A stretch of DNA of 64,000 bases from Candidatus Omnitrophota bacterium (GTDB lineage: Bacteria > Omnitrophota > Gorgyraeia > Aquiviventales > Aquiviventaceae): contig JAHFGT010000001.1 of the NCBI GenBank assembly GCA_023247275.1, positions 6,265 through 70,264 on the forward strand. The letters are read 5' to 3'. Under the pieces are notes generated by a model, which worked only from the letters and a program-made list of their open reading frames with translations, did not search any database and had not been told where the DNA came from. The translations under genes and the position numbers were made by a program. Positions 32,809 to 54,152 of the stretch are shown here, in pieces (within the stretch, counting starts at the first letter, position 1; every line of letters begins with the position of its first letter).

Positions 32809-33722
32809 TACCGTCGCACCCGCGCCAGATTGAGCAGGCCTAAGACGCACGTCTTCCAGGCGAATGGATCTTGCTCTAGCGCCTGCCCAAAGCTGTGCCA
32901 GGCGCGGGCATGGTCGCCCTGTTGCATCAAGGCATGTGCCGCGCCGCGGATCGCCGCCGCGCGCTGCCGCCGCATGGCATACCGGTATCGGAGCGATCGA
33001 TTCGTCCACTGTTGGTAGTGCGCGTCCAACACCGCCAGCACATGGTCGCGATGCTCCTCGATCCGGCTGGTCACGCCCAGCGGATGGACCCGGTAGACGC
33101 CGAGCGGTTCATGCAGGTAGGTGAATCGACCGCCGGCTTTGGCCAGGCGCAACCATAGATCATAGTCTTCGACGCCGTTGATTCGCAGCTCCTCGGAAAA
33201 CCCGCCCACGTCGAGGACAAGCCGCCGCCGCACCACGGTCGCGGACGTTGACAGGCAGTTCCCGCGAAACAAGAGCTGATCGTATCGTCGATGCGGCCCG
33301 TACCGCAGCCGCGATCGATGGCCATTCTCTCGCACCAACCACTCGTCATGACACACAAGGTCGATCGCGGGATCGTTCTCCAACACCGCGCTGACCCGCT
33401 CTAACTTGCGGTCCACCCAATAGTCATCCGCATCCAAAAACGCCACGAACCGACCGCTCGCCGCCTGGATCCCGGTGTTGCGCGCCGCGCCGATGCCCTG
33501 ATGTGGTTGAGTGCACAGCCGGATGACGACGTCCGGATGGTCGCGTCTCCAGGCGTCGGCGAGATCACGCGTTCGGTCGGTTGACCCGTCGTCGACCACT
33601 ACGACTTCATCCGCTCGACAGGTCTGCTGCTGGACAGAATCCAGCGCCTGGGTGATGAACCGCTCAGCGTTACGGGCAGGAATGATGACGCTATACAAGG
33701 ACATCGGCGACGGCAGCCGCAA
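32808..33722 (-). CDS. Family-2 glycosyltransferase
   Basis: YSVIIPARNAERFITQALDSVQQQ...VVVVDDGSTDRT...FLDADD. Confidence 0.8.
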   Translation of the reverse strand: MRLPSPMSLYSVIIPARNAERFITQALDSVQQQTCRADEVVVVDDGSTDRTRDLADAWRRDHPDVVIRLCTQPHQGIGAARNTGIQAASGRFVAFLDADDYWVDRKLERVSAVLENDPAIDLVCHDEWLVRENGHRSRLRYGPHRRYDQLLFRGNCLSTSATVVRRRLVLDVGGFSEELRINGVEDYDLWLRLAKAGGRFTYLHEPLGVYRVHPLGVTSRIEEHRDHVLAVLDAHYQQWTNRSLRYRYAMRRQRAAAIRGAAHALMQQGDHARAWHSFGQALEQDPFAWKTCVLGLLNLARVRR

Positions 33723-35556
33723 CGGTCCGGGTCCCGGCAGAGAATAACTGCTCGCGCATGTAGGCTCTCTCAGCGGGTGATGGCATACCCTGGTGTGGAT
33801 GCTGGCACCAGCGCTCGAGCGCTGTCCGCAGTTCGCCGATCGATCCGAATCGCGGAATCGCCATCACAGCAGCCAACGCCGCGCTGTTAAAACCGGTCGG
33901 CAGCCATTGCCACACCGGTTTGCCGAGCACGAACGCCTCTTCAGCGACGGTCGAATACGTAAACAACACCAGGTCCGCCGCACGCACATCGTCATCGAGC
34001 GGCGCCTGGCTGATAGTGATGCGCTCGTTCCATTTGGTAATGGCCGGGTGGCGACTGATGGGCTGCAAGGGATGCGGTCGCAGGCGGATGCGAATCTGCG
34101 CCATGCCGTCTGTCGCTGCGCACACCGCATCGACTAACTCCAGTTCAGTCGCCAGGTCAAATCCAAGTGCGACGAGAATCTCGAGCGGCCGAGCGCCACC
34201 CGCTGCCAAGGATACCGGACCGCGCGTCAAGGCAATCGCTCGCAGATACTCATAGCGCGGGGTGCCGGTCGGGACGAGCTGCTGACGGGAATACCCGCAG
34301 GTGCGCAGCACCCGCTGGGCCCATGTGCCCATCGTGCACACCATCGCTGGATGCGGAACCGCCACGCCATCCGGCCGCCCCTGAAACTCGAGCGTCGGGT
34401 GCAGCAATAAGAACGTTTTTTCGTGGCTATAGCTTGCGTGTTGGACCGCCCACGAAGTCGTCCCGACCGCCGCGCGCTGCGCGCCCTCATAACAGGCCCG
34501 GGCGTGCGGAAAATGTTCCAGGAAGCTGAGCATCAGTGTCGGCCGATATCGCTGGCACGCACGCTGGGTGGCCAGCGCGACCACCCCCCCATGGGGCAGA
34601 CTGGAATCCAATGTCCCTTGGATCAGCTTGTCAGAGAACAGCGGATAATAGTTCAGCCCGTCCCGCCAACAGGCCGCACGTAACGCCCCAGACTGGTGGA
34701 ATTGCCGCACGATCCACCACGGACGCAGATCCATGAGCGCTGTGCATACCTCCTGCCACCGCAAGAGCGACTGGAGCATCACAACCTGGTCCGTGGCCTG
34801 GGACGTAGGCTGCGCTTGGTGCGGATCATACCAGGCCAACCATCCGCAGGAGATCTGCTGGCTACGAAGCTCGGTTGGCAACTGCCCAAAATATTTGTCA
34901 ACGAGCTTCCCGGTCGTTTGATCCCACCGCACGCTCCAACTCCAAAACCCGCACAACGCCACTTGAAACGATCGACCTGGAAGGCTGCGGCGGCGCAAGC
35001 GCCTGCAGTCGCGCAAGAGCCGGGCTCCATACCGCAGGCGCGTGGCGATGGCTCGGATCATGTCCACCCATCCATGGGACCGACGCTGGCTTCGTTCCAC
35101 CACATGAAATCGGGTTTTCAGTACCGCCACGATTCGAGCTGGGGCGCCATCGAGAATCAGGCGATCGCATCGCGCCTGGGCCGCGGTCGCGCAAATTGTC
35201 AGAATCGCGATGAGGTCGTTAAAGGTTGGGTCGACCTCGCAATCTTTGAACGTGACCGGATGAAACCACCATCGACTCGCGTGCCCTGGCACGGTGAGTC
35301 GCTGACGCAACGTCTGCCCGTCACGATCGGTAGCCAGACCCAGCCGTGCGACCAAGTGGACATACAATCGACGGGCCGTTGTCCGCACCCCCTGTGAAGC
35401 GACCCGTGCCCGGACCACGGTATGGGGAGATCGGACGGCTAACGCTTCCTCTTGAATCGGTGGGAGAAAACTGAGGATCGCGGCGGACGTAACAAACGCC
35501 TGTCGCGGCGGCTCGCGCCAACAGACCCAGACGGACCGCTGGCCAGCCGCCATCAC
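33691..35556 (-). CDS. Large TagF-like (CDP-glycerol glycerophosphotransferase family) or capsule-type transferase, tentative
   Basis: 621 aa. The C-terminal RLRPHP...ADLVLFTYSTVAEEAFVLGKPV resembles the TagF/Glyphos_transf motifs (IKPHP...DLLITDYSS...KPIIFY). Confidence 0.35.
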   Translation of the reverse strand: MMAAGQRSVWVCWREPPRQAFVTSAAILSFLPPIQEEALAVRSPHTVVRARVASQGVRTTARRLYVHLVARLGLATDRDGQTLRQRLTVPGHASRWWFHPVTFKDCEVDPTFNDLIAILTICATAAQARCDRLILDGAPARIVAVLKTRFHVVERSQRRSHGWVDMIRAIATRLRYGARLLRDCRRLRRRSLPGRSFQVALCGFWSWSVRWDQTTGKLVDKYFGQLPTELRSQQISCGWLAWYDPHQAQPTSQATDQVVMLQSLLRWQEVCTALMDLRPWWIVRQFHQSGALRAACWRDGLNYYPLFSDKLIQGTLDSSLPHGGVVALATQRACQRYRPTLMLSFLEHFPHARACYEGAQRAAVGTTSWAVQHASYSHEKTFLLLHPTLEFQGRPDGVAVPHPAMVCTMGTWAQRVLRTCGYSRQQLVPTGTPRYEYLRAIALTRGPVSLAAGGARPLEILVALGFDLATELELVDAVCAATDGMAQIRIRLRPHPLQPISRHPAITKWNERITISQAPLDDDVRAADLVLFTYSTVAEEAFVLGKPVWQWLPTGFNSAALAAVMAIPRFGSIGELRTALERWCQHPHQGMPSPAERAYMREQLFSAGTRTVAAAVADVLV

Positions 35557-37469
35557 GCACCCGAAGGGACGACGTCGGTCGTCGGATTGACCGCGAGGAT
35601 CACCTTGAGATGGGTGCGGGCGCGCGCCAGTTGCCAGGCATGTTCAAATGCCTGCATCGGCAGTGTGTGTTGGAGCAACGCCGTGGTGTCGATCGTTGGC
35701 AGCAGGTTAATCGCTTCTTCGAAATCTACGCCAGCGCTTGCCACCGAGCCGATGAGGGTTTTGTCAGATCCTACGATGTCTTCAAAATTGTACGGCCGGC
35801 GGGCATACGGCAACCCGAGCAGCAAGATCGTGGATCCCGGCGCAGATTGGCGCAAGATCCTCTCAAGCGAATCAGGATCTCCGGTTGCCTCAATGATCAC
35901 GCTAACATCGCGAAGCGAATCCAATCCCTGCGCACTCCTCATGTTGGTGGCCGTCAGGAGCCTGAGCCGATCAACGCGCTGATCCACAACGATCACGTGA
36001 TGACCTCGACGCGCCAGCACCTGCGCGACCAGATGCCCGATCGGCCCGGCTCCGATCACCGCGCAGCTCTTCGGTCCACTAGGGCCCCAGGCAGATTCCA
36101 ATCGCCGGAGCCCTTTCAAGACGACAGCGAGCGGTTCGCAGAGTGCGGCGGCTTTTAAACTCACCTGGTCTGGAAGCCGATGGACGCACCGAGCCGGCAC
36201 GATCAGATAGTCGGCATAGCCGCCGTGATGGCCGATGACCCCTACCTCCTGGCGCTCAGGACACTGAACCGTGTCGCCGGCGCGACAGACAGCGCACTCT
36301 CCACAGCCTTGAAGGCACTCGACCACGACCCGATCCCCCTCAGCCCACTCAGTGACCCGAGATCCGCTCGCCGCGATCACCCCAGAGCATTCGTGTCCTG
36401 GCACGACCGGATAGCTGGCTTGTCCTGACCGGTAATAGCCTAACGTCCCGTCGAGGATGTCCAGGTCCGTCGCGCACACACCTTCGTACGCCACCCGGAT
36501 CAACACCTCGCTGGGCTTGAGCAGAGGCAGTTCGAGCTGCTCAAGGCTGGCCTGCCCTGGCCCACGAATCACGACCGCTGGATACGACACGCGAAACAAC
36601 AGCCGGGCCTGCGCCGACTCGTTCGATGCCTGATGCCCGTTCCATAACCCGGTCGCGGTCCCGACAAACTTCTGCCATCGAAACTGTGCGATCTCAGCGC
36701 CTCGGGTCTGGAGGCAACGGCCATGCCACGCATGGGCCAGATCGCCGATCAGATAACGCAGTTCGCGCCAGGCTTCCCCGGTGACATCCCAGGGCTGTTT
36801 CAGCCCGAGCGTCTTGGCCGCCTGCGCCTCTCGGTAATATCGTCGAAACACCTGCGGCCAGGTTTCGCGATGGAGATGGCAGACGCTGGCCGCTGGTTCA
36901 TAGATGACCTGGTACCCTTGCTGCATCCAATGCTTGGCCCATTCGATATCCTCAAGACCTGGCAACCGCTCATCAAACGGATGCTGCTCCCACAGCTCTC
37001 GCCGCAGCGCCGCGTTGGCGTTATTCGCGAAAAACCGCGGAGACGTCAGGACCTGTCGACAGCCTCCAAACGTCCGCCGAAAGTCACGCGCCTCGCCCAG
37101 CTTGGAGTCCTGATGACCTTCCTGCCGCCCATACACCATGGCGGTCTGCTCCTCGCGAAGCGCAGCAATCAGATGTGTCAACCAGTCAGGGCCTGTCGGC
37201 AGCGCATGCGCAGAAACGATGACCAGATACCGACCCTGACTGTTGCGGATTCCGACATTGGCAGAGTAGCCGAAGGTGAAGTCCTGTTGCCGAATCCGTA
37301 CGAGCCGGTCAGCGCGCTCCTGCGCGATGGCGCGCGTGCGGTCGATCGACCCTGAGTCCACGACAATGGTCTCAACATCCTGGTAGGTCTGCGCGGCGAG
37401 TCGGTCGAACAACGCCGGCAAGAGGGCTTCTTCGTTATAGGTGCGGATAATAATCGAGGTCTCAGCCAT
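35553..37469 (-). CDS. Fusion protein: N-terminal family-2 glycosyltransferase plus C-terminal zinc-dependent medium-chain dehydrogenase (MDR/ADH)
   Basis: The first roughly 280 aa are GT2 (MAETSIIIRTYNEEALL...VVDSGSIDRT). They are followed by GVCATDLDILDG...GHECSGVIAASG and the Rossmann motif VIGAGPIGHLVAQV. The maximal ORF extends to 37643. Confidence 0.75.
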   Translation of the reverse strand: MAETSIIIRTYNEEALLPALFDRLAAQTYQDVETIVVDSGSIDRTRAIAQERADRLVRIRQQDFTFGYSANVGIRNSQGRYLVIVSAHALPTGPDWLTHLIAALREEQTAMVYGRQEGHQDSKLGEARDFRRTFGGCRQVLTSPRFFANNANAALRRELWEQHPFDERLPGLEDIEWAKHWMQQGYQVIYEPAASVCHLHRETWPQVFRRYYREAQAAKTLGLKQPWDVTGEAWRELRYLIGDLAHAWHGRCLQTRGAEIAQFRWQKFVGTATGLWNGHQASNESAQARLLFRVSYPAVVIRGPGQASLEQLELPLLKPSEVLIRVAYEGVCATDLDILDGTLGYYRSGQASYPVVPGHECSGVIAASGSRVTEWAEGDRVVVECLQGCGECAVCRAGDTVQCPERQEVGVIGHHGGYADYLIVPARCVHRLPDQVSLKAAALCEPLAVVLKGLRRLESAWGPSGPKSCAVIGAGPIGHLVAQVLARRGHHVIVVDQRVDRLRLLTATNMRSAQGLDSLRDVSVIIEATGDPDSLERILRQSAPGSTILLLGLPYARRPYNFEDIVGSDKTLIGSVASAGVDFEEAINLLPTIDTTALLQHTLPMQAFEHAWQLARARTHLKVILAVNPTTDVVPSGA

Positions 37470-38424
37470 GGGCGGATGTCTGCGCAACCGGTCGGTGTAA
37501 GACGTCCAGCAGATTTCGGATCGTGCGTTCGTGCACCGCAGTCGCGGCTTGGGGGCTGCTGTTCGCGTTGTGCGGAGCCAGCCAACAGTTGGGCAGTCGA
37601 CGGAGCGGGCTGTCCGCCGGCAACGGCTCAACGTCGAACACATCCAACGCCGCGCCGGCGATTCGTCTTTGCTCCAGGGCGCGCACCAACGCGGATTCCT
37701 CTATCACCGGCCCGCGCGAGGTATTCACGATCACAGCGGTCGGTTTCATGCGCGCGAACGCCGACTCGTCCATCAAATGAAACGAGGTGGGGTTCAGTGA
37801 CGGGTTCAGACTGATACAATCGGCCTCGCGCAGGAGCTGGTCACGTGCCACCATCTGGATCCCGGTACTGGCGACAAATGGCTGTGGTAGCTCTACCGGA
37901 TCATGTCCCAACACCCGCATGCCGAACGCGACCGCCCGACGCACCACCGCCTTGCCGCAATTGCCGACGCCGATCACCCCCAATGTGCGCTCCCGCAGCG
38001 AGACGAGTTCCGGCTTGATCCATTGGCCCTCATGCATCTGCGCATTCATCTCGGCCAGCCGACGGGCAAACAGCAGCAGATATCCCATGACCGTATCAGC
38101 CACTGGTTCACTAAACGCGTTCGGCGTATTGCACACTACGATCCCGCGTTGAGCCGCCGCCTCAAGGTCAATCGAATCGATTCCAGTGCCCCACTTTGAG
38201 ATGACCTTCAGCCGTGGTGCAGCCTCCAGCACCTGGCGCGTCAGCCGATCATCCCCGCAGATGATCCCGTCGATATCACCCACCACCGGCAACAATTCAG
38301 CCTCGCTCAGCCGTTCCTGGACGCGCGCGACAATGACCTCGCATCCAGCGGCTTCCAACGCTGCGCGGTACCGGTCAATCACCGATATGGCATACGGAGC
38401 AGAGATCAGCACCCGGTCGCTCAT
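37462..38424 (-). CDS. D-isomer-specific 2-hydroxyacid dehydrogenase family protein
   Basis: GIVVCNTPNAFSEPVADTVMGYLL and the NAD motif TLGVIGVGNCGKAV. Catalytic R/E/H region. Confidence 0.85.
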   Translation of the reverse strand: MSDRVLISAPYAISVIDRYRAALEAAGCEVIVARVQERLSEAELLPVVGDIDGIICGDDRLTRQVLEAAPRLKVISKWGTGIDSIDLEAAAQRGIVVCNTPNAFSEPVADTVMGYLLLFARRLAEMNAQMHEGQWIKPELVSLRERTLGVIGVGNCGKAVVRRAVAFGMRVLGHDPVELPQPFVASTGIQMVARDQLLREADCISLNPSLNPTSFHLMDESAFARMKPTAVIVNTSRGPVIEESALVRALEQRRIAGAALDVFDVEPLPADSPLRRLPNCWLAPHNANSSPQAATAVHERTIRNLLDVLHRPVAQTSAHG

Positions 38425-40198: not shown

Positions 40199-40315
40199 CG
40201 CCGAGTGGCCTCGCGCCGTTCCAACGTCAGCAGACTCATCGTACCCGTCAGAAGAACCCGAGCACTGCTGCGCTGGACCGTTCGGTAAGCTTCAGCGTGA
40301 AGAGTTGGAACGGCA

Positions 40316-41356
40316 CTAGCGGGGTTCAGGTGCCCAGGAATCTGAATTGTCAATGCAGGCTTTGCAGACCGGGTTCTCTGCGTATCGTCCTTGCTGATGG
40401 AGGATGCGCAGCTGCTGCATTTTCTCGCCGTTCCAAATGGACTTGACGTCTGCCGTATGGGCGTTGCCCATCACCAGATGTTCCGCGGCTCGCATATTGC
40501 AGCACGGCAACACCGACCCATTGGCCCGGACGGTCACCCGCTGAAACGGGCTTGGGCATCGCGGCGTGATCGTTGGCGTCCGCGGAGCCCCGGTGGTGAA
40601 GTGGACCTGCTTTTCCTCCCGCATGGCGCCATCAAACGGGTTGTGCAAATTCTGAATCGAAAACAGATCGGCCTTGTCTTCCCAATAGTCCAAGAACGGT
40701 TCCAGCTCGTGCAGATTGTCGGCCATCCGCAAAAAGGTCAGTTTCAACAGCGGTAACCGGACGCCCAGCTCTTTGCGGATCTCCAAAAACCGGTGGATCG
40801 CTTTGAGCAGCTTGGCGTACTCCCCGCCGACACGCACCTTCGCGTACGTCTCGGCTGAGAACGCATCCACGGAAAATGACAGCTTGGTCAGCCCGGCCGT
40901 GATCAATTCCTGAGTCAACTCATCGGTGAGGAGTAAGCCATTGGTATTGAACATCACCTCGACCGCGCCAGCTTCGCGCGCGCAGCGGACGAATTGGGGC
41001 AGGTCTCGTCGAATCAGCGGCTCATTAATGTAGTTAAGATTCACCGCGCGCAACCCGTGCGTGACTCCATCCGTGACGATCTGTTTGAAAAATTCAAACT
41101 CCATCCAGGAGCTTTTGCCCTTCCCATAAGTGGCCTCAGCGCTCCAGGTACACATCGGGCATTTCAGATTGCAGGAGACGTTCAGCTCGAAATCGATCTG
41201 GACCGGATACGATCGTTCCAGCTCCAGCTTGGTCGTCTGCTCCCATTCTGTGCGATACTCAGCATACCCAGGGCCGATCTCTTCAATCAACACCCGGTGC
41301 GGATCTTCATGCGGACTGTACAACGATTTGCGCCAACCTTTATGCACGTACGCCAT
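40316..41356 (-). CDS. Radical SAM protein with C-terminal SPASM/twitch-like Cys cluster
   Basis: CNLKCPMC (CxxxCxxC) at about residue 70. The C-terminus has CPSPFQRV...LPCCNM...CKAC. Confidence 0.8.
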   Translation of the reverse strand: MAYVHKGWRKSLYSPHEDPHRVLIEEIGPGYAEYRTEWEQTTKLELERSYPVQIDFELNVSCNLKCPMCTWSAEATYGKGKSSWMEFEFFKQIVTDGVTHGLRAVNLNYINEPLIRRDLPQFVRCAREAGAVEVMFNTNGLLLTDELTQELITAGLTKLSFSVDAFSAETYAKVRVGGEYAKLLKAIHRFLEIRKELGVRLPLLKLTFLRMADNLHELEPFLDYWEDKADLFSIQNLHNPFDGAMREEKQVHFTTGAPRTPTITPRCPSPFQRVTVRANGSVLPCCNMRAAEHLVMGNAHTADVKSIWNGEKMQQLRILHQQGRYAENPVCKACIDNSDSWAPEPR

Positions 41357-43202
41357 CGTCTCCCCTTGTCAATGCGATGATCGATCCGACGCGGGCCGGC
41401 TCCAGTCTCGACGCCGGCTCAGGCTGAACGATTGCAGGACCTCCCGCCTGTAACGCCCAGTACGCGCTGCGGCGCGACACGAGCTGTTCATGGGTCCCCT
41501 GTTCGGCGACTCGGCCATGCTCCAGGACCACGATGTGATGCGCCTTGAGGATCATCGACAGCCGGTGCGCCACAATAATCACGGTGCGGCCCTGGCTGAT
41601 TCTCAGCATCGCCTGATGCACACGCCGCTCGGACTCTTGGTCAAGGGCGCTGGTCGCTTCATCAAACAGCAATACGTCAGGTCGGCGCAACACCGCTCGC
41701 GCAATGGCGATCCGTTGCCGCTGGCCACCGGACAGCTTTAGACCTCGATCGCCAACGATGGTGTCGTACCCCTGTGGCAAGGCGTGGATGAACTCATCCG
41801 CATCCGCCTGTTGCGCCGCCCAGCGAATGTCTGATTCGCTGGCCGATGGGTGCGCGAACGCAATATTGTCCGCGATCGACGCGTGAAAGATGAACGTGTC
41901 CTGGCTCACGAACCCGATCCGGCTTCGCCACGAAGCGATATCGAAAGTGTTGAGATCAACCCCATCCAGGGTCACTCGACCCGCGGTGGGATCGTACAGG
42001 CGAACCAGCAGATCCACGATCGTCGACTTTCCTGCCCCTGACGGGCCAACGATGACTGTGGTCTGTCCCACGGGAAACGTGAGGGTCACCTCAGACAGCA
42101 CCTCCACCCCCTCGGCGCCCGGATAGGCAAACCGCACATGGTCCAACCGAACCGCCTCCTGAATGCCTGGGCATGGCAGACCGGCTGGTTGATCGTGCTG
42201 CGGCCTGGGCAACTCTAGCAGCTGCTGCACGGTGCGCACTGAAGCGACCTCAGCGCGCAGCTTGATCAGTTCTTTGTTGAGCCCACCGACCAGCGGCAAC
42301 AACCGGGCCAAGATCACGACCACCATCACCACTACCGACAAGAGATTCTCTGCGGTGGACGACCCGTGATTCAGCACCATCACCGACACCATCATGACGA
42401 CCGCGGCCGCCACCTCGCCCAACGGCTGCGCCAACACGGGCAGGATCTGGAGTCTGAAATTGGCCTGGCTCATCTGATCCGCCATGCGCTGAAACCCGGC
42501 CTGGAGCCGATCTTCTGCGGAGAAGACTTTGACCTGCCTGATCCCAAGGATGGCCTCGGCCGTGAGGGCGGTAAAGTCGCGAACCAGCCGCTGCCGGATC
42601 GATGCCAGTCGCCGAGACGTGAGCGCGAGCCGCTGCAATCCGATCGTCAACACCGCAAACGTGAGCGTCGCAGCACAGGTGGCCTGCCAGGAGATGCAGA
42701 TGAGCAGGACGTAGAGCGCCGCGATAGTGGTCGTAATGGACAACAGCGACAGGACGGTGGAAACCGCTTGTCCGGCGATGCCGGTCTCACCAAACAGATC
42801 GTTGATCAGCCGGCCTTGCCGTCGATCCAGGAAAAACTGAAACGGCGAGTGCAGGTACCGGTCAAAGATTCTAGTCCGCAGATCCTTCACCGTCCCGAGC
42901 TCAATGCGCAAGCCGAGCAGTCGGCTGGCATACCCCAACAGGTTTTTCAGGATGATGGCGGCCAGTAAGACGCCGGCAATCCATTGCACCTGCGCGTGGC
43001 GCGGGCCATTACCGGCCACCCACCGACTCAGCGCCAGCACACTGTTTGGGAGCGGCTGCCGACCGGTCGTCAGCGGCATGAACAGCGGCACAAATAAGCT
43101 AATACTCGCTGATTCGAGAATCGCGCTCCCGGTTCCAAGCGCCACACACGCCACTAGCAGCCACCGGTACGGCCGCACCAACCGCCACACGGCCTGCATC
43201 AC
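41340..43202 (-). CDS. ABC exporter, fused permease + ATPase (MsbA / lipid A-flippase-like)
   Basis: 620 aa with six TM helices, then Walker A GPSGAGKST, signature LSGGQRQRIAIARA and Walker B LLFDEATSALD. No N-terminal peptidase domain. Confidence 0.9.
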   Translation of the reverse strand: MMQAVWRLVRPYRWLLVACVALGTGSAILESASISLFVPLFMPLTTGRQPLPNSVLALSRWVAGNGPRHAQVQWIAGVLLAAIILKNLLGYASRLLGLRIELGTVKDLRTRIFDRYLHSPFQFFLDRRQGRLINDLFGETGIAGQAVSTVLSLLSITTTIAALYVLLICISWQATCAATLTFAVLTIGLQRLALTSRRLASIRQRLVRDFTALTAEAILGIRQVKVFSAEDRLQAGFQRMADQMSQANFRLQILPVLAQPLGEVAAAVVMMVSVMVLNHGSSTAENLLSVVVMVVVILARLLPLVGGLNKELIKLRAEVASVRTVQQLLELPRPQHDQPAGLPCPGIQEAVRLDHVRFAYPGAEGVEVLSEVTLTFPVGQTTVIVGPSGAGKSTIVDLLVRLYDPTAGRVTLDGVDLNTFDIASWRSRIGFVSQDTFIFHASIADNIAFAHPSASESDIRWAAQQADADEFIHALPQGYDTIVGDRGLKLSGGQRQRIAIARAVLRRPDVLLFDEATSALDQESERRVHQAMLRISQGRTVIIVAHRLSMILKAHHIVVLEHGRVAEQGTHEQLVSRRSAYWALQAGGPAIVQPEPASRLEPARVGSIIALTRGDDGVRA

Positions 43203-44077
43203 GCCGCTGACTCCGATGGTCTATCGCCCCAACCCGGTGGAGACGCCTCAAGGAGAGCTGGCTGGGCCGACGAGCGCGAGCCAGGGTTCGCGTCTGGCTT
43301 TTCCATCAGCAGCACCACATGGTCCCAGCCGCCCACGCGCGCCTGCCGGCGATACGTTTCCGCGATCACTCGACACCCGAATCGGCGCTGATACCGTTTG
43401 CGCAGATCATGGAAGAACACATCGTCCTCGAACAAGGCCACCCCACCCAGCGCCTCCGGCCTGTAGTTCCATGTCGGCTCCAGATGCAGCACATACCGCG
43501 AGGAGACCCTGAGCACTTCCCGCAGAACGTCAGTCACCCGTGAGGGTGAGACATGTCCGAGGACCATAAAGGTGTACACGAGCTCGAAGGCTCCATCGGC
43601 AAACGGCAAGGAGAACATGTTGCCCTGCACAAAGTTCACCCCGTGCTGCACGAACCCGAGTTCGCGCGCCCCCTGGAGCTGTTCAGGCGCCACATCGATC
43701 CCGGTGAATCGGCTCAGCGGATAGTGTCGCTGAAAAAAGTCCAGGTTCCAGCCCGGCCCGCAGCCGACTTCGAGCCATGATGCCGGGATGATTTTCTCAG
43801 TGCGCAGACCATCCAGCACCAACTGTTGCCGCAAGGCGATTCGCTGCTTCGCTTCAGGATCAGACCATTTCGCCACATAATGCTGAATCGTCCGGTTGGT
43901 GATAAACCGGGGGTCTTGGTACCCTTGGATCCGTTGAGCCTGCACGGTGCTGCGGCCCATCAACCTGCGCAGCAGATACGCCACCCGGTACGGGTGCTCC
44001 AACCCAAAATAGCTGCGCTCCAGGATCCCTTGAACGACCGCTTTGAGTGGACGCCGAAGCACCGCCGGCAGTCTCAT
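43199..44077 (-). CDS. Class I SAM-dependent methyltransferase
   Basis: LEVGCGPGWNLDFFQRHYP...GIDVAPEQL. Confidence 0.75.
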   Translation of the reverse strand: MRLPAVLRRPLKAVVQGILERSYFGLEHPYRVAYLLRRLMGRSTVQAQRIQGYQDPRFITNRTIQHYVAKWSDPEAKQRIALRQQLVLDGLRTEKIIPASWLEVGCGPGWNLDFFQRHYPLSRFTGIDVAPEQLQGARELGFVQHGVNFVQGNMFSLPFADGAFELVYTFMVLGHVSPSRVTDVLREVLRVSSRYVLHLEPTWNYRPEALGGVALFEDDVFFHDLRKRYQRRFGCRVIAETYRRQARVGGWDHVVLLMEKPDANPGSRSSAQPALLEASPPGWGDRPSESAA

Positions 44078-46038
44078 GAGTGCCGCCTGTTGACGACCAG
44101 CTGATCCTGCTGGATCATAGCAACCACCGCGTCTCTGAATCGAGTGATCGCGTGCCCATCGGTAAACGGATCAAACAGCTGTCGGACACGATTCACCACG
44201 GTCGCCGGAATAGCCTCGACGTCTTGGGCGACAGAACCCTCTGACCCTGTTCCGCTGACGACCGGCCGATGCAATGAGGCGATCACCGCGTTGACCAGCG
44301 CCGATTCCTCATCGAACATCAGCCGCCACTGATCGAAAAATTCCGCGGCAAACGGCGCCACCCGAAACTCCGATGGCGTGAACACGTACGAGGGCTTCCC
44401 CAGCAGCAACGCCTCGATCCACACCGAGCCGAACGCCGCGTATTGCCCGGTGGACATGACCGCATCCGCCTGCTGGATTAAGTACTGGGCCGTGCAGGTC
44501 AGCTGCTTGGTGGGATCAAGGATCGCGATCCGTTGCGCCCGCACGCCAGGCTCAAGGATGTCCCAAAAAGGTGGCGTGAACAAAAACCGCGAATGCTCAG
44601 GCCACTCCTCGTTGGCTTTGGGCTTGAGGATGATCCGCAGAGGAACCGGGCGTCGGGCCAGCTCGGCGATCGCCAGCAGGAAGCGACGGTTGCGTTCCAT
44701 CACAAAAACATCAGGCGTATACGAACCGGTAAATGCGGCAAGGATCGTTTCACCAGGCTGTCGATCGACCAGCAGCCGTCGCACCGGTTCGCTGGCAGCC
44801 TGATCGTCCGACATCCTGGAGCTGTCGTTACTCGGCATCCCGATGGCGGTCACCTGCATCCGACGGCTCCAGGTCTGGCCATAGATCGACACCGGAAACC
44901 ACCCTTGGACCGGAAACAGATCGTAGTGCAGGTACGCGGTCTGCGCGCCGGCGGTGGTAAACGCGGTGTACGGCACCCAGGTCGTGCGGCCGCCGGTATG
45001 GTTGAGCACGATCGTTTCAATAATATGGTGGTACGCGTGCTCTTCCGCATTGAGCAACACGCGCAGCGGAGAGTGACGCAGAAACGTCTCCAGCTGGATT
45101 CCGTACCGAACTGCCCCGGTCAGACCACGCCGCAGCGGCGGATGGGGCGACTGACCAGTTCGGCACAGAGCACCGACCAGGCGAGCGAGTCGAGGAATCA
45201 ACCGCAACAAATCGCTCAAGACCATCGGTGGCCCGCACAACCTGGCCCATCGCAGGCCAGCGTGATCATATTCCCGGATGCGTTGAGCTTCAGGACCTTT
45301 TCCCGATATGACCAGCAGGAGATCGCTGCGCTGGACGCGATCCCCATCGGCCAGGAAATCGGCCGAACGCAACTCGTTGGGCCGGCCGGTCACCGTCCAA
45401 TAGTCGTGAAATCCGATCCGAGGTGCCGCACGGTGGCGAACGCGTACACAGAGCCCTTGCCGGACACACTGCGTCAGCACCTGCCACACCAACCCAGCCG
45501 CGACGATTCCATGTCCGATCAGCGGCTGCCACCAGCGCCACGCACTCGGCTGTGATTCCTGCCGACTCTGTATCGCGTGCTGGGGCCAGATTGTTTGACG
45601 CAGTCGCCAGCCATCCAGCAATTTCGCAGACCATGAACTCGTGACAACAAACGTCGCCTGCGTGCACCGCTGTTGACGTGCCTGCTCCAGCGCAGCGTGG
45701 TACAGTGCCACCTGGTCTTGCACCCAGTGACACACGATCTTCCGGCAGACCAAACGCACCTGCGGGTCGCCGTAGAAAAACTGCTGGAACGCCTGCTCGA
45801 GATCAGGTTCGACTAAATCGCGAAACAACGTTTCGGTGAGCTCAACGCTGAGCAATGATGCCGCGGCCAGCCCGGCCCCCATCTGTTCCCGACGCAACAC
45901 TTGCCCAGCCATTCTGGTCCAGCGGTGCCATGGACCGATGGCCGGCCGCAATGCCACCGTCGTTCCGCACGCGCATCGAGAGGCTTCCTGCACGTGGCGG
46001 ATCCGCCCAAGCCGCTGAGGTCGCTCTACAATGATCAC
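44074..46038 (-). CDS. Large hypothetical protein, possibly TagF-like / capsule-type transferase
   Basis: 654 aa. The C-terminal ILKPKANEE...ADAVMSTGQYAAFGSVWIEALLLGKPSYVF loosely resembles the TagF family C-terminus. Confidence 0.3.
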   Translation of the reverse strand: MIIVERPQRLGRIRHVQEASRCACGTTVALRPAIGPWHRWTRMAGQVLRREQMGAGLAAASLLSVELTETLFRDLVEPDLEQAFQQFFYGDPQVRLVCRKIVCHWVQDQVALYHAALEQARQQRCTQATFVVTSSWSAKLLDGWRLRQTIWPQHAIQSRQESQPSAWRWWQPLIGHGIVAAGLVWQVLTQCVRQGLCVRVRHRAAPRIGFHDYWTVTGRPNELRSADFLADGDRVQRSDLLLVISGKGPEAQRIREYDHAGLRWARLCGPPMVLSDLLRLIPRLARLVGALCRTGQSPHPPLRRGLTGAVRYGIQLETFLRHSPLRVLLNAEEHAYHHIIETIVLNHTGGRTTWVPYTAFTTAGAQTAYLHYDLFPVQGWFPVSIYGQTWSRRMQVTAIGMPSNDSSRMSDDQAASEPVRRLLVDRQPGETILAAFTGSYTPDVFVMERNRRFLLAIAELARRPVPLRIILKPKANEEWPEHSRFLFTPPFWDILEPGVRAQRIAILDPTKQLTCTAQYLIQQADAVMSTGQYAAFGSVWIEALLLGKPSYVFTPSEFRVAPFAAEFFDQWRLMFDEESALVNAVIASLHRPVVSGTGSEGSVAQDVEAIPATVVNRVRQLFDPFTDGHAITRFRDAVVAMIQQDQLVVNRRHS

Positions 46039-47297
46039 GATGACCCCTGGGCGAGCAAGCGATCCACTAGCTCCTGTGTCGCGCTGACTGATAATCGATA
46101 CACCCGAATGCGCGCCAACGCGTGCAGTTGCAGAAACTCATCCCTCAGCCGAGCCAATTGCTGGAGATGTTCAACGGTTAAAAACCCGGACAGGAACGCC
46201 TCGCGAATCAGCCCTGGGAACTCTCTAGCTGTCTGTGAGCCCTCCGGAACACCGACCCTCTGGAGTTGGAACCCAGCCCGAATCGCGGCGATCGCTTGAT
46301 ACCCGCGTTTGAGCCTGGCCGCCACACGATCCCCCAACAACCGTTGGGTCCACTGAAACAGACGGGTGCGCCCGGTCGCAACTCCATAAGGAAAATCATC
46401 GCTCAACGCCCGGTTGATCAGCGCCTGCGCGGTCGCCACATCTTCTGCGCAGCTCCACTCGCGCTCGCTGGGACTGGGATCCACCTCAGCGATCACCGCC
46501 AACTGATCGAACGTCAGCAGCCCTGGCGCATACTCGGTGATGGCCACCACGCGAAACCCATGCTGTTCCAGCGTCTGAATCAGGCTGCGGCGAGAATACA
46601 GGATCACGTGCGTCTTGATCATATGCCGTTGATGCAAGAACCCCAGATCCGGCGTTTCCAAATAGATGAGACCGCCCGGGCGCAACACGGTGCGGACCGC
46701 CGCCAGGAACGCGGGCGGGTCGTTAATGTGTTCAAAAAATTGAAAGAACGCGATGATATCAAACGTCGACCCATCCGCCAGGCCGGCCGGAAAATAGTCT
46801 GATACCATTTGCACGCCATACTGCTCGCGCGCCCAGTGCGCGTACCGTGCGTTCGGATCGATCCCCATGGTCTGCCATCCGCGCTGCTGCATGAGCCAGA
46901 GAAACGACCCATCCCTGGCACCAATCTCCAACAGCCGACGACCGGATGGCTCGCGCCCCACCGCCGCCAGCTGTTGCTCAAACCATCGCTGACGATACCG
47001 ATTGCGCTCACGACGATACGCGGTATCTTTGCGCCAGGTTGTGCGATCCATCTGTTGGTACGGCGAGACGTAGACCGTATCAAGCCCGTCATGGTCCTCG
47101 ATGACGCGTTCGGTATGCACCAGCCCGCACCGCGCGCAATGGCCATACACGACCCCAACGCTGGCCGGGACATATTTCGTTGCGACATGCAGCAGCGGCT
47201 GGCGATCAACGCCTCCACAGACCGGGCACCGGGCCCGCGGCATCATCACGATGGCAGGCGCGGTGTGTGGCCGATCAGCCAGCATGACCCGCTCCAA
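46035..47297 (-). CDS. SAM-dependent methyltransferase with N-terminal Cys4 zinc-binding domain and extra C-terminal domain (TylC3-type C-methyltransferase architecture)
   Basis: CPVCGG-x26-CARC. Methyltransferase motif LLEIGARDGSFLWLM. A roughly 150-aa C-terminal extension. Confidence 0.7.
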   Translation of the reverse strand: MERVMLADRPHTAPAIVMMPRARCPVCGGVDRQPLLHVATKYVPASVGVVYGHCARCGLVHTERVIEDHDGLDTVYVSPYQQMDRTTWRKDTAYRRERNRYRQRWFEQQLAAVGREPSGRRLLEIGARDGSFLWLMQQRGWQTMGIDPNARYAHWAREQYGVQMVSDYFPAGLADGSTFDIIAFFQFFEHINDPPAFLAAVRTVLRPGGLIYLETPDLGFLHQRHMIKTHVILYSRRSLIQTLEQHGFRVVAITEYAPGLLTFDQLAVIAEVDPSPSEREWSCAEDVATAQALINRALSDDFPYGVATGRTRLFQWTQRLLGDRVAARLKRGYQAIAAIRAGFQLQRVGVPEGSQTAREFPGLIREAFLSGFLTVEHLQQLARLRDEFLQLHALARIRVYRLSVSATQELVDRLLAQGSS

Positions 47298-49272
47298 CCG
47301 ACGGCTCCATCAGGACACCGTGGGCCTTCTCCAACGTGGCAACCCCCTGTCTCTGCGCAATCGCGCGGAGCGCATGAACAGCTCGTTCGGCTGAGCGTCC
47401 ATCCTGCTGCGCAGTGCCATAGCGACATAGAAATTCGTCATTGATCGGCTCAGGGGCGCGCCAAACCGGCCGGCGCAGCATCGCGTCGATCTCCTGTAAG
47501 AACGCCGGTTGATTCGTTGTCACGATCGCGCGCGCGGATAACAGCTGTTGCGCCTCTGGGTACAGCCGCATGAACCGGGTATCGGCTAAGACGATGATCG
47601 GCTGATCCGTCGTCAGCGCCTGCAGCAGCGTTGTGGCCGGGCTATCGATCAGGATCAGATCCGCGCGAGCCAACAGCTCGGCAAACGGTGGCGTCTGAAC
47701 CAGGCGGCATCGTCGGACCCGGGTCCGGCGCGCCCACGCTGCGAGCGGGTTGGTAAGACGATCTCGCGGATCCAACTTCACGATCAGCTCCACATCGGCA
47801 ACGCGCTCGCACCGCTCCACCACAGCGCGTTGGAGCCGCCAATACCAGATATCTGGGTAGATATGCCGGCTAAAATATCGCCAGTCTCCCATCAGCTCTG
47901 TCGGAACGTATAGGATGGTTCGACGGGCACGCAACCGATGACGAGGACGCTCAACGGGTCCTGGCACTCGACGCCTAGTGCAGAGGCGATCTAAGGCCGC
48001 CGATCCGACTGTGCTAGGCTGCGCTGCCCTCAGAGCATTGGTTCGGACGTGATCCACACCCAATCGCTCCACGGTCTCACGCACGCCATCGCCATAACAC
48101 AGAAAATAGTCGGCCAACTGCAGTTCAGAGAACGGCAGCATCGGGTACTCCAGATAGCCGACAAACCCGCCATGCTGAGCGACCACCGTTGGCACGCCAT
48201 GCTGGCGCGCGACCACCGCGCACGCGACGTCCTCGATCGTCAGGTACGCTGAGCCGAGAATCACCGAGGCCGAAGTCGAAGGCTTCTCCAACAGCCGCGC
48301 GAGCGCTGTCGCAGTGCTGACATGCCGCCCGAGCGCCTCAACCAACAGCGTGCGGGCCGATTGCTCGATCAGCGGCCACAGATCCAGGCCTGCGATGGTG
48401 CATGCGTCCCGGACCGCTTGATCTGTGCGCAGTCGATCCCACAGGCGATCGGTGACGCTAGCCTCTACCGGGGCGATGCCATGCTGAGCCTGGTTGCGAT
48501 GACGCGGCAGACGCATCAACCGTCGGTCGATGATCCCATGTCCTTGGGCAAGCCAAGCGGTTAACACCTCTTCATCTGACCAGTATCCGGTCAGAAGAAT
48601 TCGTACCCCTATGGCACGCGATCCATATCCATGGCGAATTCGCCACCGGGTCCATCGATCCTGATGGGGTCGTCGAAACGCACCGATCACCCGAGACAAC
48701 GCTCTAACCGACCTGGTGATGCGCGTGTCAATTCTGTTCGGCTCTGAGGACGATGGTGGTAGCGCGCACAACGCGATTCCCAGTTGCTGCGTCAGATACG
48801 GCAAGCACTGCATCGTCAAGATCCCGAGGCGAAGATCTGTTGGGACGTGCGCCGGTACGGCGGCCACAATGGTCTGGGGTGTGACCAGTTCGATCGCCGA
48901 TTTCAGCGTATAGGTTCGATGCAGCAGAGCGTCGACAACAATTTTTACGCGATAATAGAGCGACTGCAACGAAAACCCTGCCAACGTAGCCGGTTCTACG
49001 CAAGCCTGAAGATGAGAATCGACCGCGGCGCACAGCTGTTCAGTTTTTCGGAAGTTATCATGTCCTAACGCCAACAAGGCGTCCTCGTCGTAGCAGTCCT
49101 CGATGGTTCGGTATGTCAAGCCCTGACGCGTTGCCGCTTCGTCAGCAGCCGGTGTGAGCGCAACTAAGCTCAGCGGCCGACCCTGGTGTTGGCTCCAGAC
49201 CAGGAGCTGTTGGAGTTCGTCTGGGGTGGCGAACAGCCCCATCGTCGTGTGCGCGGTCCTGTTCATTACCAA
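47275..49272 (-). CDS. Large TagF-like (CDP-glycerol glycerophosphotransferase family) protein, tentative
   Basis: 665 aa. ILYVPTE...IVKLDPRD...ADLILIDSPATTLLQALTTDQPIIVL parallels the TagF motifs. Confidence 0.35.
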   Translation of the reverse strand: MVMNRTAHTTMGLFATPDELQQLLVWSQHQGRPLSLVALTPAADEAATRQGLTYRTIEDCYDEDALLALGHDNFRKTEQLCAAVDSHLQACVEPATLAGFSLQSLYYRVKIVVDALLHRTYTLKSAIELVTPQTIVAAVPAHVPTDLRLGILTMQCLPYLTQQLGIALCALPPSSSEPNRIDTRITRSVRALSRVIGAFRRPHQDRWTRWRIRHGYGSRAIGVRILLTGYWSDEEVLTAWLAQGHGIIDRRLMRLPRHRNQAQHGIAPVEASVTDRLWDRLRTDQAVRDACTIAGLDLWPLIEQSARTLLVEALGRHVSTATALARLLEKPSTSASVILGSAYLTIEDVACAVVARQHGVPTVVAQHGGFVGYLEYPMLPFSELQLADYFLCYGDGVRETVERLGVDHVRTNALRAAQPSTVGSAALDRLCTRRRVPGPVERPRHRLRARRTILYVPTELMGDWRYFSRHIYPDIWYWRLQRAVVERCERVADVELIVKLDPRDRLTNPLAAWARRTRVRRCRLVQTPPFAELLARADLILIDSPATTLLQALTTDQPIIVLADTRFMRLYPEAQQLLSARAIVTTNQPAFLQEIDAMLRRPVWRAPEPINDEFLCRYGTAQQDGRSAERAVHALRAIAQRQGVATLEKAHGVLMEPSVGAGHAG

Positions 49273-51187: not shown

Positions 51188-51957
51188 CCGCGTGTCTGCC
51201 CGCCATCGACGACCAAACACGCGCCAGTCAGAAACGACGCGCGCGTTGAAGCCAGGAACACCGCCGCATCCGCGACTTCGTCGACCCGACCAAATCTGCC
51301 CAGCGGCACTTCGCGCTGAATGTACTTGGCGACCTGCTCAGACTGCTGCTGTTGATACCGGTCCCATGATCCACCGGGGAACAAGATATTTCCCGGCGCC
51401 ACCGCATTGACCCGCACCCCATGCGGGCCGACCGCGCGTGACAAACTCTTCATCGTGCTGTGCAACGCGGCCTTGGCCGCGCTGTACGGCACCGGTGCCC
51501 CGAGCGCCTCACAACCAGCGATCGAGGAAATAAATGTGAGACTCCCAGCACGCTGACGAACCAGATGTTTGAGGACCGCGTCCGCCAACTGCACGCTACC
51601 TAAAAGGTTCATCTGAAGGCTCGCCTGCCACTCCTTAGGCGTCACATGCCATCCGCTTGGTCCGACCCCGCTGCCAATGTTCGCCACCACCGCATCTAGC
51701 CGCTTAAACCGAGCGAGTACCTGCTCCACCGCTTCTTGAATACGCACCGGATCAGTCAGATCGCCTTGCACCGCCATGACGCGGGACGGGTCGCTGGCCT
51801 CCGCCAAGCGTCGCGTCGCCTGGTCTAGCACATCCGGCCGGCGTCCGCTAATCACGACTGATGCGCCTTCCTTCAAGAACGCCTCGCTAATCGCGAGCCC
51901 AATGCCTTGACTCGATCCGGCAATGAAGACCACCGATCCTTCGAGTTCCAGATTCAT
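51181..51957 (-). CDS. Classical SDR-family oxidoreductase (3-oxoacyl-ACP reductase-like)
   Basis: VVFIAGSSQGIGLAISEAF and YSAAKAAL. Confidence 0.85.
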   Translation of the reverse strand: MNLELEGSVVFIAGSSQGIGLAISEAFLKEGASVVISGRRPDVLDQATRRLAEASDPSRVMAVQGDLTDPVRIQEAVEQVLARFKRLDAVVANIGSGVGPSGWHVTPKEWQASLQMNLLGSVQLADAVLKHLVRQRAGSLTFISSIAGCEALGAPVPYSAAKAALHSTMKSLSRAVGPHGVRVNAVAPGNILFPGGSWDRYQQQQSEQVAKYIQREVPLGRFGRVDEVADAAVFLASTRASFLTGACLVVDGGQTRGW

Positions 51958-52799
51958 GCTGCAGGAACAGCCACAACGTTGACCTGCTGCTCAATCAACT
52001 GGCGATTGCGGATCGCCAACTGGAGCTCAGATACCGATGGATCTCTCGCGGCTTGCAGAACCAACGGTCCTGAAAATCGGCGTTCCCCAAGCAGCCGAAA
52101 CACCGTCGGAAAGTCAGCAGCCCCGGTCCCCAATCCCACCGACGGGCCACCTCGCGGACGGTCCTTCACATGGACGCTGCCCACCCAGGCCCCAATCGCC
52201 GTCAGCTCCTCGGTTGGATCATGGCCCAGAGCCGCGCAATTGCCGATGTCGTACGTATATTTCACCATGGGGTGCGCCACCGCGGTCATCAGCTCGACTA
52301 GCGGCTGGGCTTGCAGATCCATTTCCAGGTGTAACTCAACGTGCGTTCGCTCGGCGACAGGGACTACTCGCCGCAACATTTCCACCACCGCATGGCCTTG
52401 TGCGGCGGTTGTCAGCGACGACGCGTCGACAAACGGCAACACCACATGGCGGGCGCCCAGCATCTGAAGGCGTCCCAGCAACCAGCTCAGATGCCGCTGG
52501 GTCGGCTGATGAATCGTGCCATCTGGCTCAATCAGCGGCCGGGTCATGTAGTAATCGGCGCAGACCGACCAGACTGAGACGCCACTGTCCTCACTCACTC
52601 GCCGGATCTCCTGAAGACCATCATCGGTGCGCAACGGATTCACCGATTCAGATTCCTGATCATAGATCCATTCGATGCAGGACAACCCGGCGTGTTGTGC
52701 CAGCGCAAACTCTGCCCGCCAGGTGCGCGTTGGAAATGATTGCAATCGCCCGCGATCCGGCGGCGACAATCTGCCTTGCATCAGGCCAATCACATTCAT
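51954..52799 (-). CDS. Sugar-phosphate isomerase/epimerase (xylose-isomerase-like TIM barrel)
   Basis: MNVIGLMQGRLSPP...FALAQHAGLSCIEW... The maximal ORF extends to 52994. The MNVIG start gives an ATGA overlap with the upstream aminotransferase. Confidence 0.65.
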   Translation of the reverse strand: MNVIGLMQGRLSPPDRGRLQSFPTRTWRAEFALAQHAGLSCIEWIYDQESESVNPLRTDDGLQEIRRVSEDSGVSVWSVCADYYMTRPLIEPDGTIHQPTQRHLSWLLGRLQMLGARHVVLPFVDASSLTTAAQGHAVVEMLRRVVPVAERTHVELHLEMDLQAQPLVELMTAVAHPMVKYTYDIGNCAALGHDPTEELTAIGAWVGSVHVKDRPRGGPSVGLGTGAADFPTVFRLLGERRFSGPLVLQAARDPSVSELQLAIRNRQLIEQQVNVVAVPAA

Positions 52800-53851: not shown

Positions 53852-54138
53852 GTCAACGCATTGATCGCTTTGTCATCAATGTAGACATCTGCCGAGGGTT
53901 TGCCCATCTGCAGGATGTGGTAGCGCACTCTCCAGTCCCGCAACTGCTGCTCGGTGAGCGCCCGCCAGTCGATCCCGGTAGTCCCGCCGCGCGCGGTGTA
54001 CAATACAATGCGGTGCCCGGCCTGAAAGAGCCGATTCACCTCGTTGATGATCTTTGGAAACGGCTGCGCCTGATGGTACTCCCCGTTGGTGTTCGTGCAG
54101 AGCGTCCCATCGATATCAAAACAGTACGTCATCAGCAT
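53785..54138 (-). CDS. HAD-superfamily hydrolase (small phosphatase)
   Basis: CFDIDGTLC motif I and VLYTARG motif II. The maximal ORF extends to 54216. Confidence 0.55.
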   Translation of the reverse strand: MLMTYCFDIDGTLCTNTNGEYHQAQPFPKIINEVNRLFQAGHRIVLYTARGGTTGIDWRALTEQQLRDWRVRYHILQMGKPSADVYIDDKAINALTWQRSGFVEGATLPPSGRDGAA

Positions 54139-54152
54139 TCTCGGCTGGGCGG

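Follow-up and report, generated by a model that had tools for sequence, protein, structure and literature searches.

BtrN, the 2-deoxy-scyllo-inosamine (DOIA) dehydrogenase of the butirosin pathway, combines a radical S-adenosylmethionine (SAM) core with a C-terminal Twitch domain. HygY, NeoN and SpeY are Twitch epimerases or dehydrogenases of aminoglycoside pathways. To go by the title of the paper on HygY, a single Cys mutation in this enzyme reportedly unmasks dehydrogenase activity. In NeoN, Cys249, which is not a cluster ligand, is the H-atom donor (PMC10991966). Here, we analyzed a radical SAM gene and the ATP-binding cassette (ABC) exporter gene that it overlaps, both located in a 64,000-nucleotide stretch from Candidatus Omnitrophota bacterium (GenBank assembly GCA_023247275.1, contig JAHFGT010000001.1, positions 6,265 to 70,264). 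We refer to this whole stretch as the window, and all coordinates are given within it (Table 1). Like BtrN, the radical SAM protein has a core and a Twitch domain and appears to belong to a carbohydrate-type pathway, often beside aminotransferases in its family. Like HygY, NeoN and SpeY, it may act by radical H abstraction from a sugar C-H, although in a different type of pathway.

Nonulosonic acids (NulOs) are found on flagella, lipopolysaccharide (LPS), capsules and S-layers, with roles in motility, immune evasion and phage recognition. PglK of Campylobacter jejuni, Wzk of Helicobacter pylori and HepA of Anabaena are MsbA-type ABC exporters of lipid-linked or envelope glycans, and the exporter of the window is, like them, a half transporter in which the transmembrane and nucleotide-binding domains (TMD-NBD) are fused. 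Among NulO clusters, the canonical legionaminic acid gene order is PtmA-LegF-PtmF-PtmE in Plesiomonas (PMC4481668 Table 5). The chemical diversity of prokaryotic NulOs is largely unmapped (PMC8157484), and in the full-text literature we found no report linking radical SAM chemistry to NulO biosynthesis.

Our preferred reading, to which we assign a probability of roughly 0.6, is that the radical SAM gene encodes a BtrN-like Twitch enzyme whose task is sugar tailoring in the synthesis of an LPS-type surface glycan containing nonulosonic or ulosonic acids. The exporter would be a separate component of the locus, its adjacency a matter of operon packing. An earlier note on this DNA had proposed that the enzyme modifies a sugar, and our sequence comparisons strengthen that proposal, since BtrN, an aminocyclitol dehydrogenase, is the closest solved relative and the family is set in NulO clusters.

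The radical SAM protein and its gene

Both genes lie on the minus strand where the earlier note had placed them, and the overlap of 17 nt that it reported is exact. The exporter frame ends with GAC GAT GGC GTA CGT GCA TAA, and the radical SAM frame starts inside it with ATG GCG TAC GTG CAT AAA, 3 nt downstream of a Shine-Dalgarno-like run, AAGGGGAG. This start codon is backed by conserved homolog N-termini.

The Radical_SAM model PF04055 matched the protein at 52.6 bits (cutoff 29.5) and the SPASM model PF13186, which in Pfam also covers Twitch domains, at 56.5 bits (cutoff 21.5). Seven Cys residues (C62, C66, C69, C267, C285, C331 and C334) were invariant in 74/74 diverse homologs with 27-47% identity, a conservation far beyond chance. 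C286 was kept in 61/74, the exceptions being S, A or T and mostly from one subfamily with the motif M-x-C-[SA]-N-D-E. HMMER alignments put C267, C285, C331 and C334 opposite all four Cys of the BtrN twitch domain, which we take to be the auxiliary-cluster ligands C169, C187, C232 and C235; this numbering agrees with an offset of 20 residues due to the tag in 4M7T. The C-terminal Cys residues number five, and the CX2CX5CX3C motif is absent, so the domain is not a seven-Cys SPASM domain with two clusters. By these alignments, it is of the Twitch subclass, with one putative auxiliary cluster. Thus, of the radical SAM/SPASM label used in the earlier note, the CxxxCxxC motif and the C-terminal Cys cluster stand, while the full SPASM domain gives way to a Twitch domain with five Cys.

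The best match in the PDB was BtrN (4M7T), with an E value of 6e-10 for the single sequence and 1.4e-22 for a 32-sequence family profile, core and Twitch both being covered. An AlphaFold (AF2) model (predicted local distance difference test [pLDDT] 87.2, predicted template modeling score 0.89) matched MoaA, BtrN, SkfB, EpeE, viperin, DesII and BlsE in Foldseek, and a partial TIM-barrel fold is predicted, with Foldseek probabilities of 1.00 to MoaA, BtrN, EpeE and viperin. The protein exceeds BtrN by about 100 aa, has an N-terminal extension (about 50 aa) bearing an invariant Y34-R35 and contains the extra Cys286. Its setting is one of cell-surface NulO/LPS glycans, not of aminoglycoside antibiotic synthesis, and there are no 2-deoxystreptamine genes. 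Orthology to BtrN (DOIA dehydrogenase) was rejected at an identity of ~17%, with no aminoglycoside genes in the window or in the related loci.

No NCBIfam family scored above its cutoff for this protein. The earlier note had set its sugar reading against a housekeeping enzyme, and classification by hidden Markov models at the NCBIfam cutoffs returned no MoaA, PQQ or heme maturase. Such identities were rejected because every score was far under its cutoff (MoaA, 64.9 against 231; PqqE, 51.5 against 381; AhbD, 54.3 against 500; NirJ, 35.3 against 515). The family to which the protein belongs is large: counted as one representative per cluster at 50% identity, it has 5,389 members at E <= 1e-30.

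The G+C content of the radical SAM gene (0.563) is the lowest of 36 genes in the locus (z -2.8), whereas that of third codon positions is normal (0.718). The low overall value is therefore a matter of amino acid composition rather than of foreign origin, and a recent horizontal insertion was rejected.

Neighborhoods of the radical SAM family

The family context was studied in 80 species-representative loci, scanning one genome per species (loci are labeled with L-numbers). The carriers included Nitrosopumilus, Nitrosopelagicus, Omnitrophota, Pelagibacteraceae, Prochlorococcus, Helicobacter cinaedi, H. bilis, Sulfurimonas, Pseudobacteroides cellulosolvens and Azospirillum, among others. When proteins of the window were used as tblastn queries, NeuB was matched in 33 of the 80 loci, the NeuB-linked cytidylyltransferase in 24, the KdsB-like protein in 17 and a 4,6-dehydratase in 27. 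De novo clustering of the neighbors within 8 kb, with cluster labels verified by Pfam, gave NeuB in 38 loci, a protein with CBS and NTP_transferase domains (PtmE-like) in 29, a 4,6-dehydratase of the short-chain dehydrogenase/reductase (SDR) type in 29, a CTP_transf_3 protein of ~240 aa in 21 (median distance 93 bp), UDP-N-acetylglucosamine (UDP-GlcNAc) 2-epimerase in 16 and PIG-L in 14. As raw co-location counts, a NulO core gene (NeuB, CMP-NulO synthetase or NeuC; CMP, cytidine monophosphate) was present at <=8 kb in 46/80 loci and in 28/40 of those with >=15 kb of sequence. This co-location recurs across distant taxa of bacteria and archaea. The radical SAM family thus travels with NulO pathways in both domains, and it has no named function in the databases used.

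Gene order was also recurrent. Of the 29 loci with a PtmE-like gene, 17 have it immediately upstream of a radical SAM gene of this family. In five loci, the radical SAM gene is followed by a DegT aminotransferase gene, which either overlaps it by 4 nt or is separated from it by 9 bp; one of these is a flagellar locus of Pseudobacteroides. In Campylobacterota, the order was PtmE-like, radical SAM, CTP_transf_3, radical SAM, in loci that also contain flagellin and Maf-like genes (both labels assigned by eye). Set against the PtmF and PtmA genes of CMP-legionaminic acid clusters, the two radical SAM genes of Campylobacterota hold the positions of two oxidoreductases of the NAD(P) type. The proteins are not homologous, so the likeness is positional only, and the window has no PtmE-like gene. 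Two family paralogs per flagellin glycosylation island were seen in L046-L051, L059, L061 and L062 (Sulfurimonas and other Campylobacterota). The one hint at such a setting that we met in the literature is a catalogue listing two phase-variable radical SAM genes beside SDR, methyltransferase and formyltransferase genes in Campylobacter fetus subsp. testudinum (PMC6321876).

Members of the M-x-C-[SA]-N-D-E subfamily (L067-L069, L077, L079-L082) have the order 4,6-dehydratase, PtmE-like, radical SAM, DegT and, further on, NeuB, WbqC and PIG-L; their chemistry possibly differs from that of CC-type members. L083 (70% identity) contains four NeuB genes, and here NeuB, CTP_transf_3 and radical SAM genes are translationally coupled. 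Four radical SAM genes lie within ~9 kb of L085 (7870-16754), accompanied by two NeuB genes and an ABC exporter, and the gene directly upstream of the family member is a B12-binding radical SAM gene.

Proposed reaction, the exporter and rival explanations

The architecture of the enzyme is established, while its chemistry, including epimerization or dehydration, is our inference from the family. The C62/C66/C69 [4Fe-4S] cluster would cleave SAM reductively, and the resulting 5'-deoxyadenosyl radical would take H from a sugar C-H. The enzyme probably acts on a nucleotide-activated sugar, as the recurrent adjacency of nucleotidyltransferase genes suggests, or on an intermediate produced beside a cytidylyl- or nucleotidyltransferase. 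Along one route, the substrate radical would become a ketone in a two-electron oxidation, its electron passing out through the auxiliary cluster held by C267, C285, C331 and C334, as in BtrN. Such a ketone could then serve a transaminase or a reductase, which is consistent with the coupling to DegT genes. Along the other, quenching on the opposite face by the spare Cys286 would yield an epimer, as in HygY and NeoN. This residue, replaced by S, A or T in one subfamily, recalls the Cys of those two enzymes, a hypothesis that likens them by description and not by comparison of sequences. In the window, the substrate may differ from that of other members and would probably be an atypical ulosonic acid, since homologs of PtmE, NeuC, PIG-L and WbqC were not found there; its source could be either the module of the divergent NeuB or, two genes downstream, the KdsB-like one.

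For the family as a whole, we tentatively suggest, with rather less than even confidence, that its members are Twitch-type C-H epimerases or dehydrogenases whose substrates are CMP-nonulosonates or the nucleoside diphosphate-hexose precursors of these. This would bring radical SAM chemistry into the biosynthesis of sialic acid-like sugars. If so, the consequences might include new NulO stereoisomers or keto/amino derivatives, and a nonhomologous replacement of NAD(P) oxidoreductases of the PtmF/PtmA type, parallel to the replacement of NeoA by BtrN. The family ranges from Nitrosopumilus and Pelagibacter to Helicobacter and Sulfurimonas, where it is part of flagellin glycosylation islands. Being large and consistently beside NulO nucleotidyltransferases and synthases, the family is a concrete, testable candidate for part of the NulO diversity, and the cultured carriers Helicobacter cinaedi, H. 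bilis and Pseudobacteroides cellulosolvens are suited to knockout and NulO mass spectrometry.

As for the exporter, the best half transporter in the PDB was MsbA (265 bits). Most likely, by analogy, it is an exporter or flippase of a lipid-linked glycan, similar to PglK, Wzk or HepA. This fits its being the sole transporter that Pfam scans of the window revealed in the locus, beside WecA-like and WaaL-like genes, with no Wzx, Wzm or Wzt in any of those scans; the flipping of a lipid-linked glycan put forward in the earlier note is thus plausible. Its orthologs (47-55% identity) are found in comparable loci with NeuB and CTP_transf_3, the nearest syntenic relative being in a Nitrospirae metagenome-assembled genome (GCA_004296885.1; L086) at ~50% identity.

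The earlier note had also coupled the enzyme to the exporter, and here the comparison pointed the other way. A full-length MsbA-type exporter was found at <=10 kb of the radical SAM gene in 0/80 loci. Six apparent ABC matches near family members cover 32-40% of the query, its ATPase domain only, and are therefore Wzt-like rather than full exporters. Conversely, among the loci with exporter orthologs, the radical SAM ortholog (73% identity) was present in L084 only, L086 having a 32% paralog and L087 and L088 none within 8 kb. Because the exporter orthologs keep their other partners with or without the radical SAM gene, we regard the place of this gene as a variable "tailoring" slot, and the overlap between the two genes as incidental.

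Several observations weigh against the preferred reading. Nine of the 40 well-covered loci had no nearby NulO gene, for instance a group of termite-gut Deltaproteobacteria with a MiaB-like neighbor, and the canonical legionaminic/pseudaminic acid genes of many family members (PtmE, NeuC, PIG-L and WbqC) are those missing from the window. The substrate and reaction are drawn from family and context, with the identity to BtrN being only ~17% in the Foldseek comparison, and the role of Cys286 as H donor is a conjecture by analogy, its neighboring residue being a cluster ligand. On the side of the exporter, none of the NCBIfam cutoffs was reached (HepA_fam, the top one, 492 against 725; MsbA, 381.5 against 602; PglK, 247 against 1000), and the genome may have a Wzx gene outside the window.

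The gene overlap itself, with its internal Shine-Dalgarno-like site, could be taken to mark enzyme and exporter as a dedicated functional pair, for example if the enzyme modified the lipid-linked glycan in a way recognized or required by the exporter, and both genes do recur in the same kind of locus in L084, L085 and L086. In these three, however, they are nonadjacent and in a different order, in L087 and L088 the exporter goes without a radical SAM gene within 8 kb, and none of the 80 family loci has a full MsbA-type exporter nearby. Moreover, between 33.7 and 50.2 kb nearly all adjacent genes overlap by 4-23 nt, so that the 17-nt overlap says "same operon" and nothing more; we find a dedicated pair distinctly unlikely. 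The other tempting inference is a system for a peptide synthesized ribosomally and then modified posttranslationally (RiPP), in which a radical SAM/SPASM peptide maturase and its ABC exporter are a common pairing. The protein shares with maturases such as SkfB and the sactisynthases the superfamily, the class of C-terminal Fe-S domain and an ABC exporter as neighbor, and it had weak NCBIfam matches to sactipeptide and other peptide maturases. All of these scores were far under their cutoffs, though, and the surroundings of the family consist of sugar genes. The only gap near the radical SAM gene holds no credible precursor, since its small ORFs are without Cys, Pfam match or counterpart in relatives; the gap is missing in L083 and contains an unrelated 39-aa ORF in L084. 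The exporter has no C39 or other peptidase domain match in Pfam, its ABC_membrane domain beginning at residue 19. In the N-terminal 60 aa of the enzyme, a Pfam-only search at E up to 10 found no RiPP recognition element or PqqD match, and the AF2 model has two short strands and two helices there, unlike a winged helix-turn-helix with three of each. A RiPP system, which the earlier note had already discarded for want of a precursor and a peptidase domain, is thus extremely improbable, and the overlap in this locus is better taken as neither RiPP system nor dedicated pair.

Two further alternatives concern the reaction. The enzyme could be a protein or cofactor maturase serving the locus, similar to anaerobic sulfatase-maturating enzymes or metalloenzyme maturases, as the top NCBIfam core-domain matches might suggest ("putative metalloenzyme maturase," 107 bits; "tungsten cofactor oxidoreductase maturase," 92 bits). 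Nevertheless, both cover the radical SAM core only and are far under their cutoffs of 400 and 380, one auxiliary cluster is predicted instead of two, and no conserved sulfatase or candidate client protein was found near family members, all of which makes a maturase very unlikely. Radical sugar chemistry of another kind (C-C bond formation or chain extension, dehydration or deoxygenation, or deamination of the DesII type) strikes us as rather unlikely. It would be in keeping with the Foldseek matches to DesII, BlsE and viperin, which all act on nucleotide-linked substrates, and with the DegT coupling, which would also suit steps ordered as in DesI/DesII; in addition, there are reports of higher-carbon ulosonic acids from prokaryotes (PMC8157484). 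Similarity by sequence and profile was, however, clearly strongest to BtrN, Twitch domain included, and Pfam found no cobalamin domain for methylation. To our knowledge, DesII and viperin also lack an auxiliary cluster, which counts against such chemistry here.

Partners of the exporter and the rest of the glycan locus

When nearly all large ORFs of the minus strand were scanned with Pfam, a glycan locus of ~56 kb emerged, from ~8 to 64 kb of the window. In the region of the radical SAM and exporter genes, all genes are on this strand in one closely packed operon. The main features are collected in Table 1.

Table 1. Features of the window around the radical SAM and exporter genes
Feature	Coordinates	Strand	Basis
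Radical SAM enzyme with C-terminal Twitch-type auxiliary-cluster domain, 346 aa	40316-41356	-	Pfam PF04055 and PF13186
CX3CX2C motif (C62-N-L-K-C66-P-M-C69), putative site of the SAM-cleaving [4Fe-4S] cluster	41150-41173	-	Read from sequence
Twitch domain, residues ~258-336; putative auxiliary-cluster ligands C267, C285, C331, C334; C286 spare	40349-40585	-	BtrN alignment
Overlap of exporter stop and radical SAM start, 17 nt	41340-41356	-	Read from sequence
Intergenic gap, 117 bp, the only one near the radical SAM gene	40199-40315	.	Small ORFs of 22 and 52 aa
Fused TMD-NBD ABC exporter, MsbA/HepA-like half transporter, 620 aa	41340-43202	-	Pfam PF00664 and PF00005
SAM methyltransferase immediately upstream of exporter, 292 aa	43199-44077	-	Pfam
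Pfam-less protein, exporter partner, 654 aa (probably 612 aa, start 45912)	44074-46038	-	Synteny
Zinc-ribbon methyltransferase, partner of exporter and 654-aa protein, 420 aa	46035-47297	-	Pfam, synteny
Zinc-ribbon SAM methyltransferase, 333 aa	39197-40198	-	Pfam Methyltransf_23; CPGC...CAAC in sequence
KdsB-like CMP-ulosonate cytidylyltransferase, 259 aa	38421-39200	-	Pfam CTP_transf_3; NCBIfam
CTP_transf_3 cytidylyltransferase, paired with NeuB	54153-54869	-	Pfam; 238-aa gene call in L089
Divergent NeuB-family nonulosonic acid synthase	54943-55929	-	Pfam NeuB, E 8.7e-64
WecA-like initiating transferase	23062-24885	-	Pfam Glycos_transf_4
WaaL-like O-antigen ligase	21751-23010	-	Pfam Wzy_C

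The exporter has conserved partners of its own. A triad consisting of the 420-aa methyltransferase, the 654-aa protein and, after 0-4 genes, the exporter (41340-47297 in the window) recurs in L084, L086, L087 and L088 at 34-52% identity, the 654-aa protein being syntenic with the exporter in all four (34-45%). It may represent a new module for methylation-linked, ABC-dependent glycan assembly or export. The AF2 model of the 654-aa protein was weak (pLDDT 62.9, with only 5 sequences available), and its Foldseek matches to GT-B proteins, including a polysialyltransferase, had template modeling scores of <= 0.39; a GT-B fold is possible on this basis. A gene for a methyltransferase of ~290 aa directly precedes an ABC exporter gene in L084 and L085 as well, homology to the 292-aa protein of the window not being detected by tblastn.

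The 333-aa zinc-ribbon methyltransferase gene, described as upstream of the radical SAM gene in the earlier note, is in fact downstream of it, as it has lower coordinates on the minus strand. Its ortholog adjoins the KdsB-like gene in L086 too. In that locus (L086:9854-16642), an HpcH/HpaI aldolase gene and a Methyltransf_21 gene fill the slot between the exporter and this pair, and downstream of the pair are Gfo/Idh/MocA, SIS and 2-hydroxyacid dehydrogenase genes, a content that might point to a 3-deoxy-2-ulosonic acid made via an aldolase. The KdsB-like protein of the window scored above the kdsB cutoffs (PRK13368, 292.8 bits against 255; TIGR00466, 163.5 bits against 155.2).

The divergent NeuB scored below the NCBIfam cutoffs, with 219 bits for NeuB and 177 bits for PseI. 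Its module (51954-55929) is atypical, comprising, besides NeuB and CTP_transf_3, a class-IV aminotransferase (branched-chain/D-amino acid type), a xylose isomerase-like TIM barrel and SDRs. A functional link between NeuB and the TIM barrel is supported by L083:12660-14540, where the two domains are fused in a protein of 626 aa.

Elsewhere in the locus, Pfam identified two GT9 heptosyltransferases, many glycosyltransferases of the GT2 and GT4 families, three polysaccharide deacetylases and one FemAB-like protein. SAM methyltransferases number at least eight (59793, 50135, 46035, 43199, 39197, 30814, 9797 and others) and are unusually dense over 9797-60788, the one at 30814 being fused to a DegT domain. 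Together with the three deacetylases and the FemAB-family protein, this density suggests a heavily methylated and otherwise decorated glycan. A regulatory or RNA element was considered and rejected, as Rfam had no match in the region and promoter- and terminator-like sites were at chance level only.

Pfam domains are absent from three proteins of 620-665 aa (47275-49272, 44074-46038 and 33691-35556), which are possibly CMP-ulosonate transferases. Two of them weakly resemble Leptospira O-antigen families, TIGR04331 (LIC12162 family) and TIGR04326 (LIC13510 family), and the counterpart in L084 of the 621-aa one bears a Glyphos_transf domain. Finally, the ORF at 35553-37643 encodes a GT2 glycosyltransferase fused to a Zn-dependent alcohol dehydrogenase (IolM- or threonine dehydrogenase-like). 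A start at 37643 would give a 182-nt overlap with the upstream gene, and the gene call in an identical contig starts at 37469 (638 aa).

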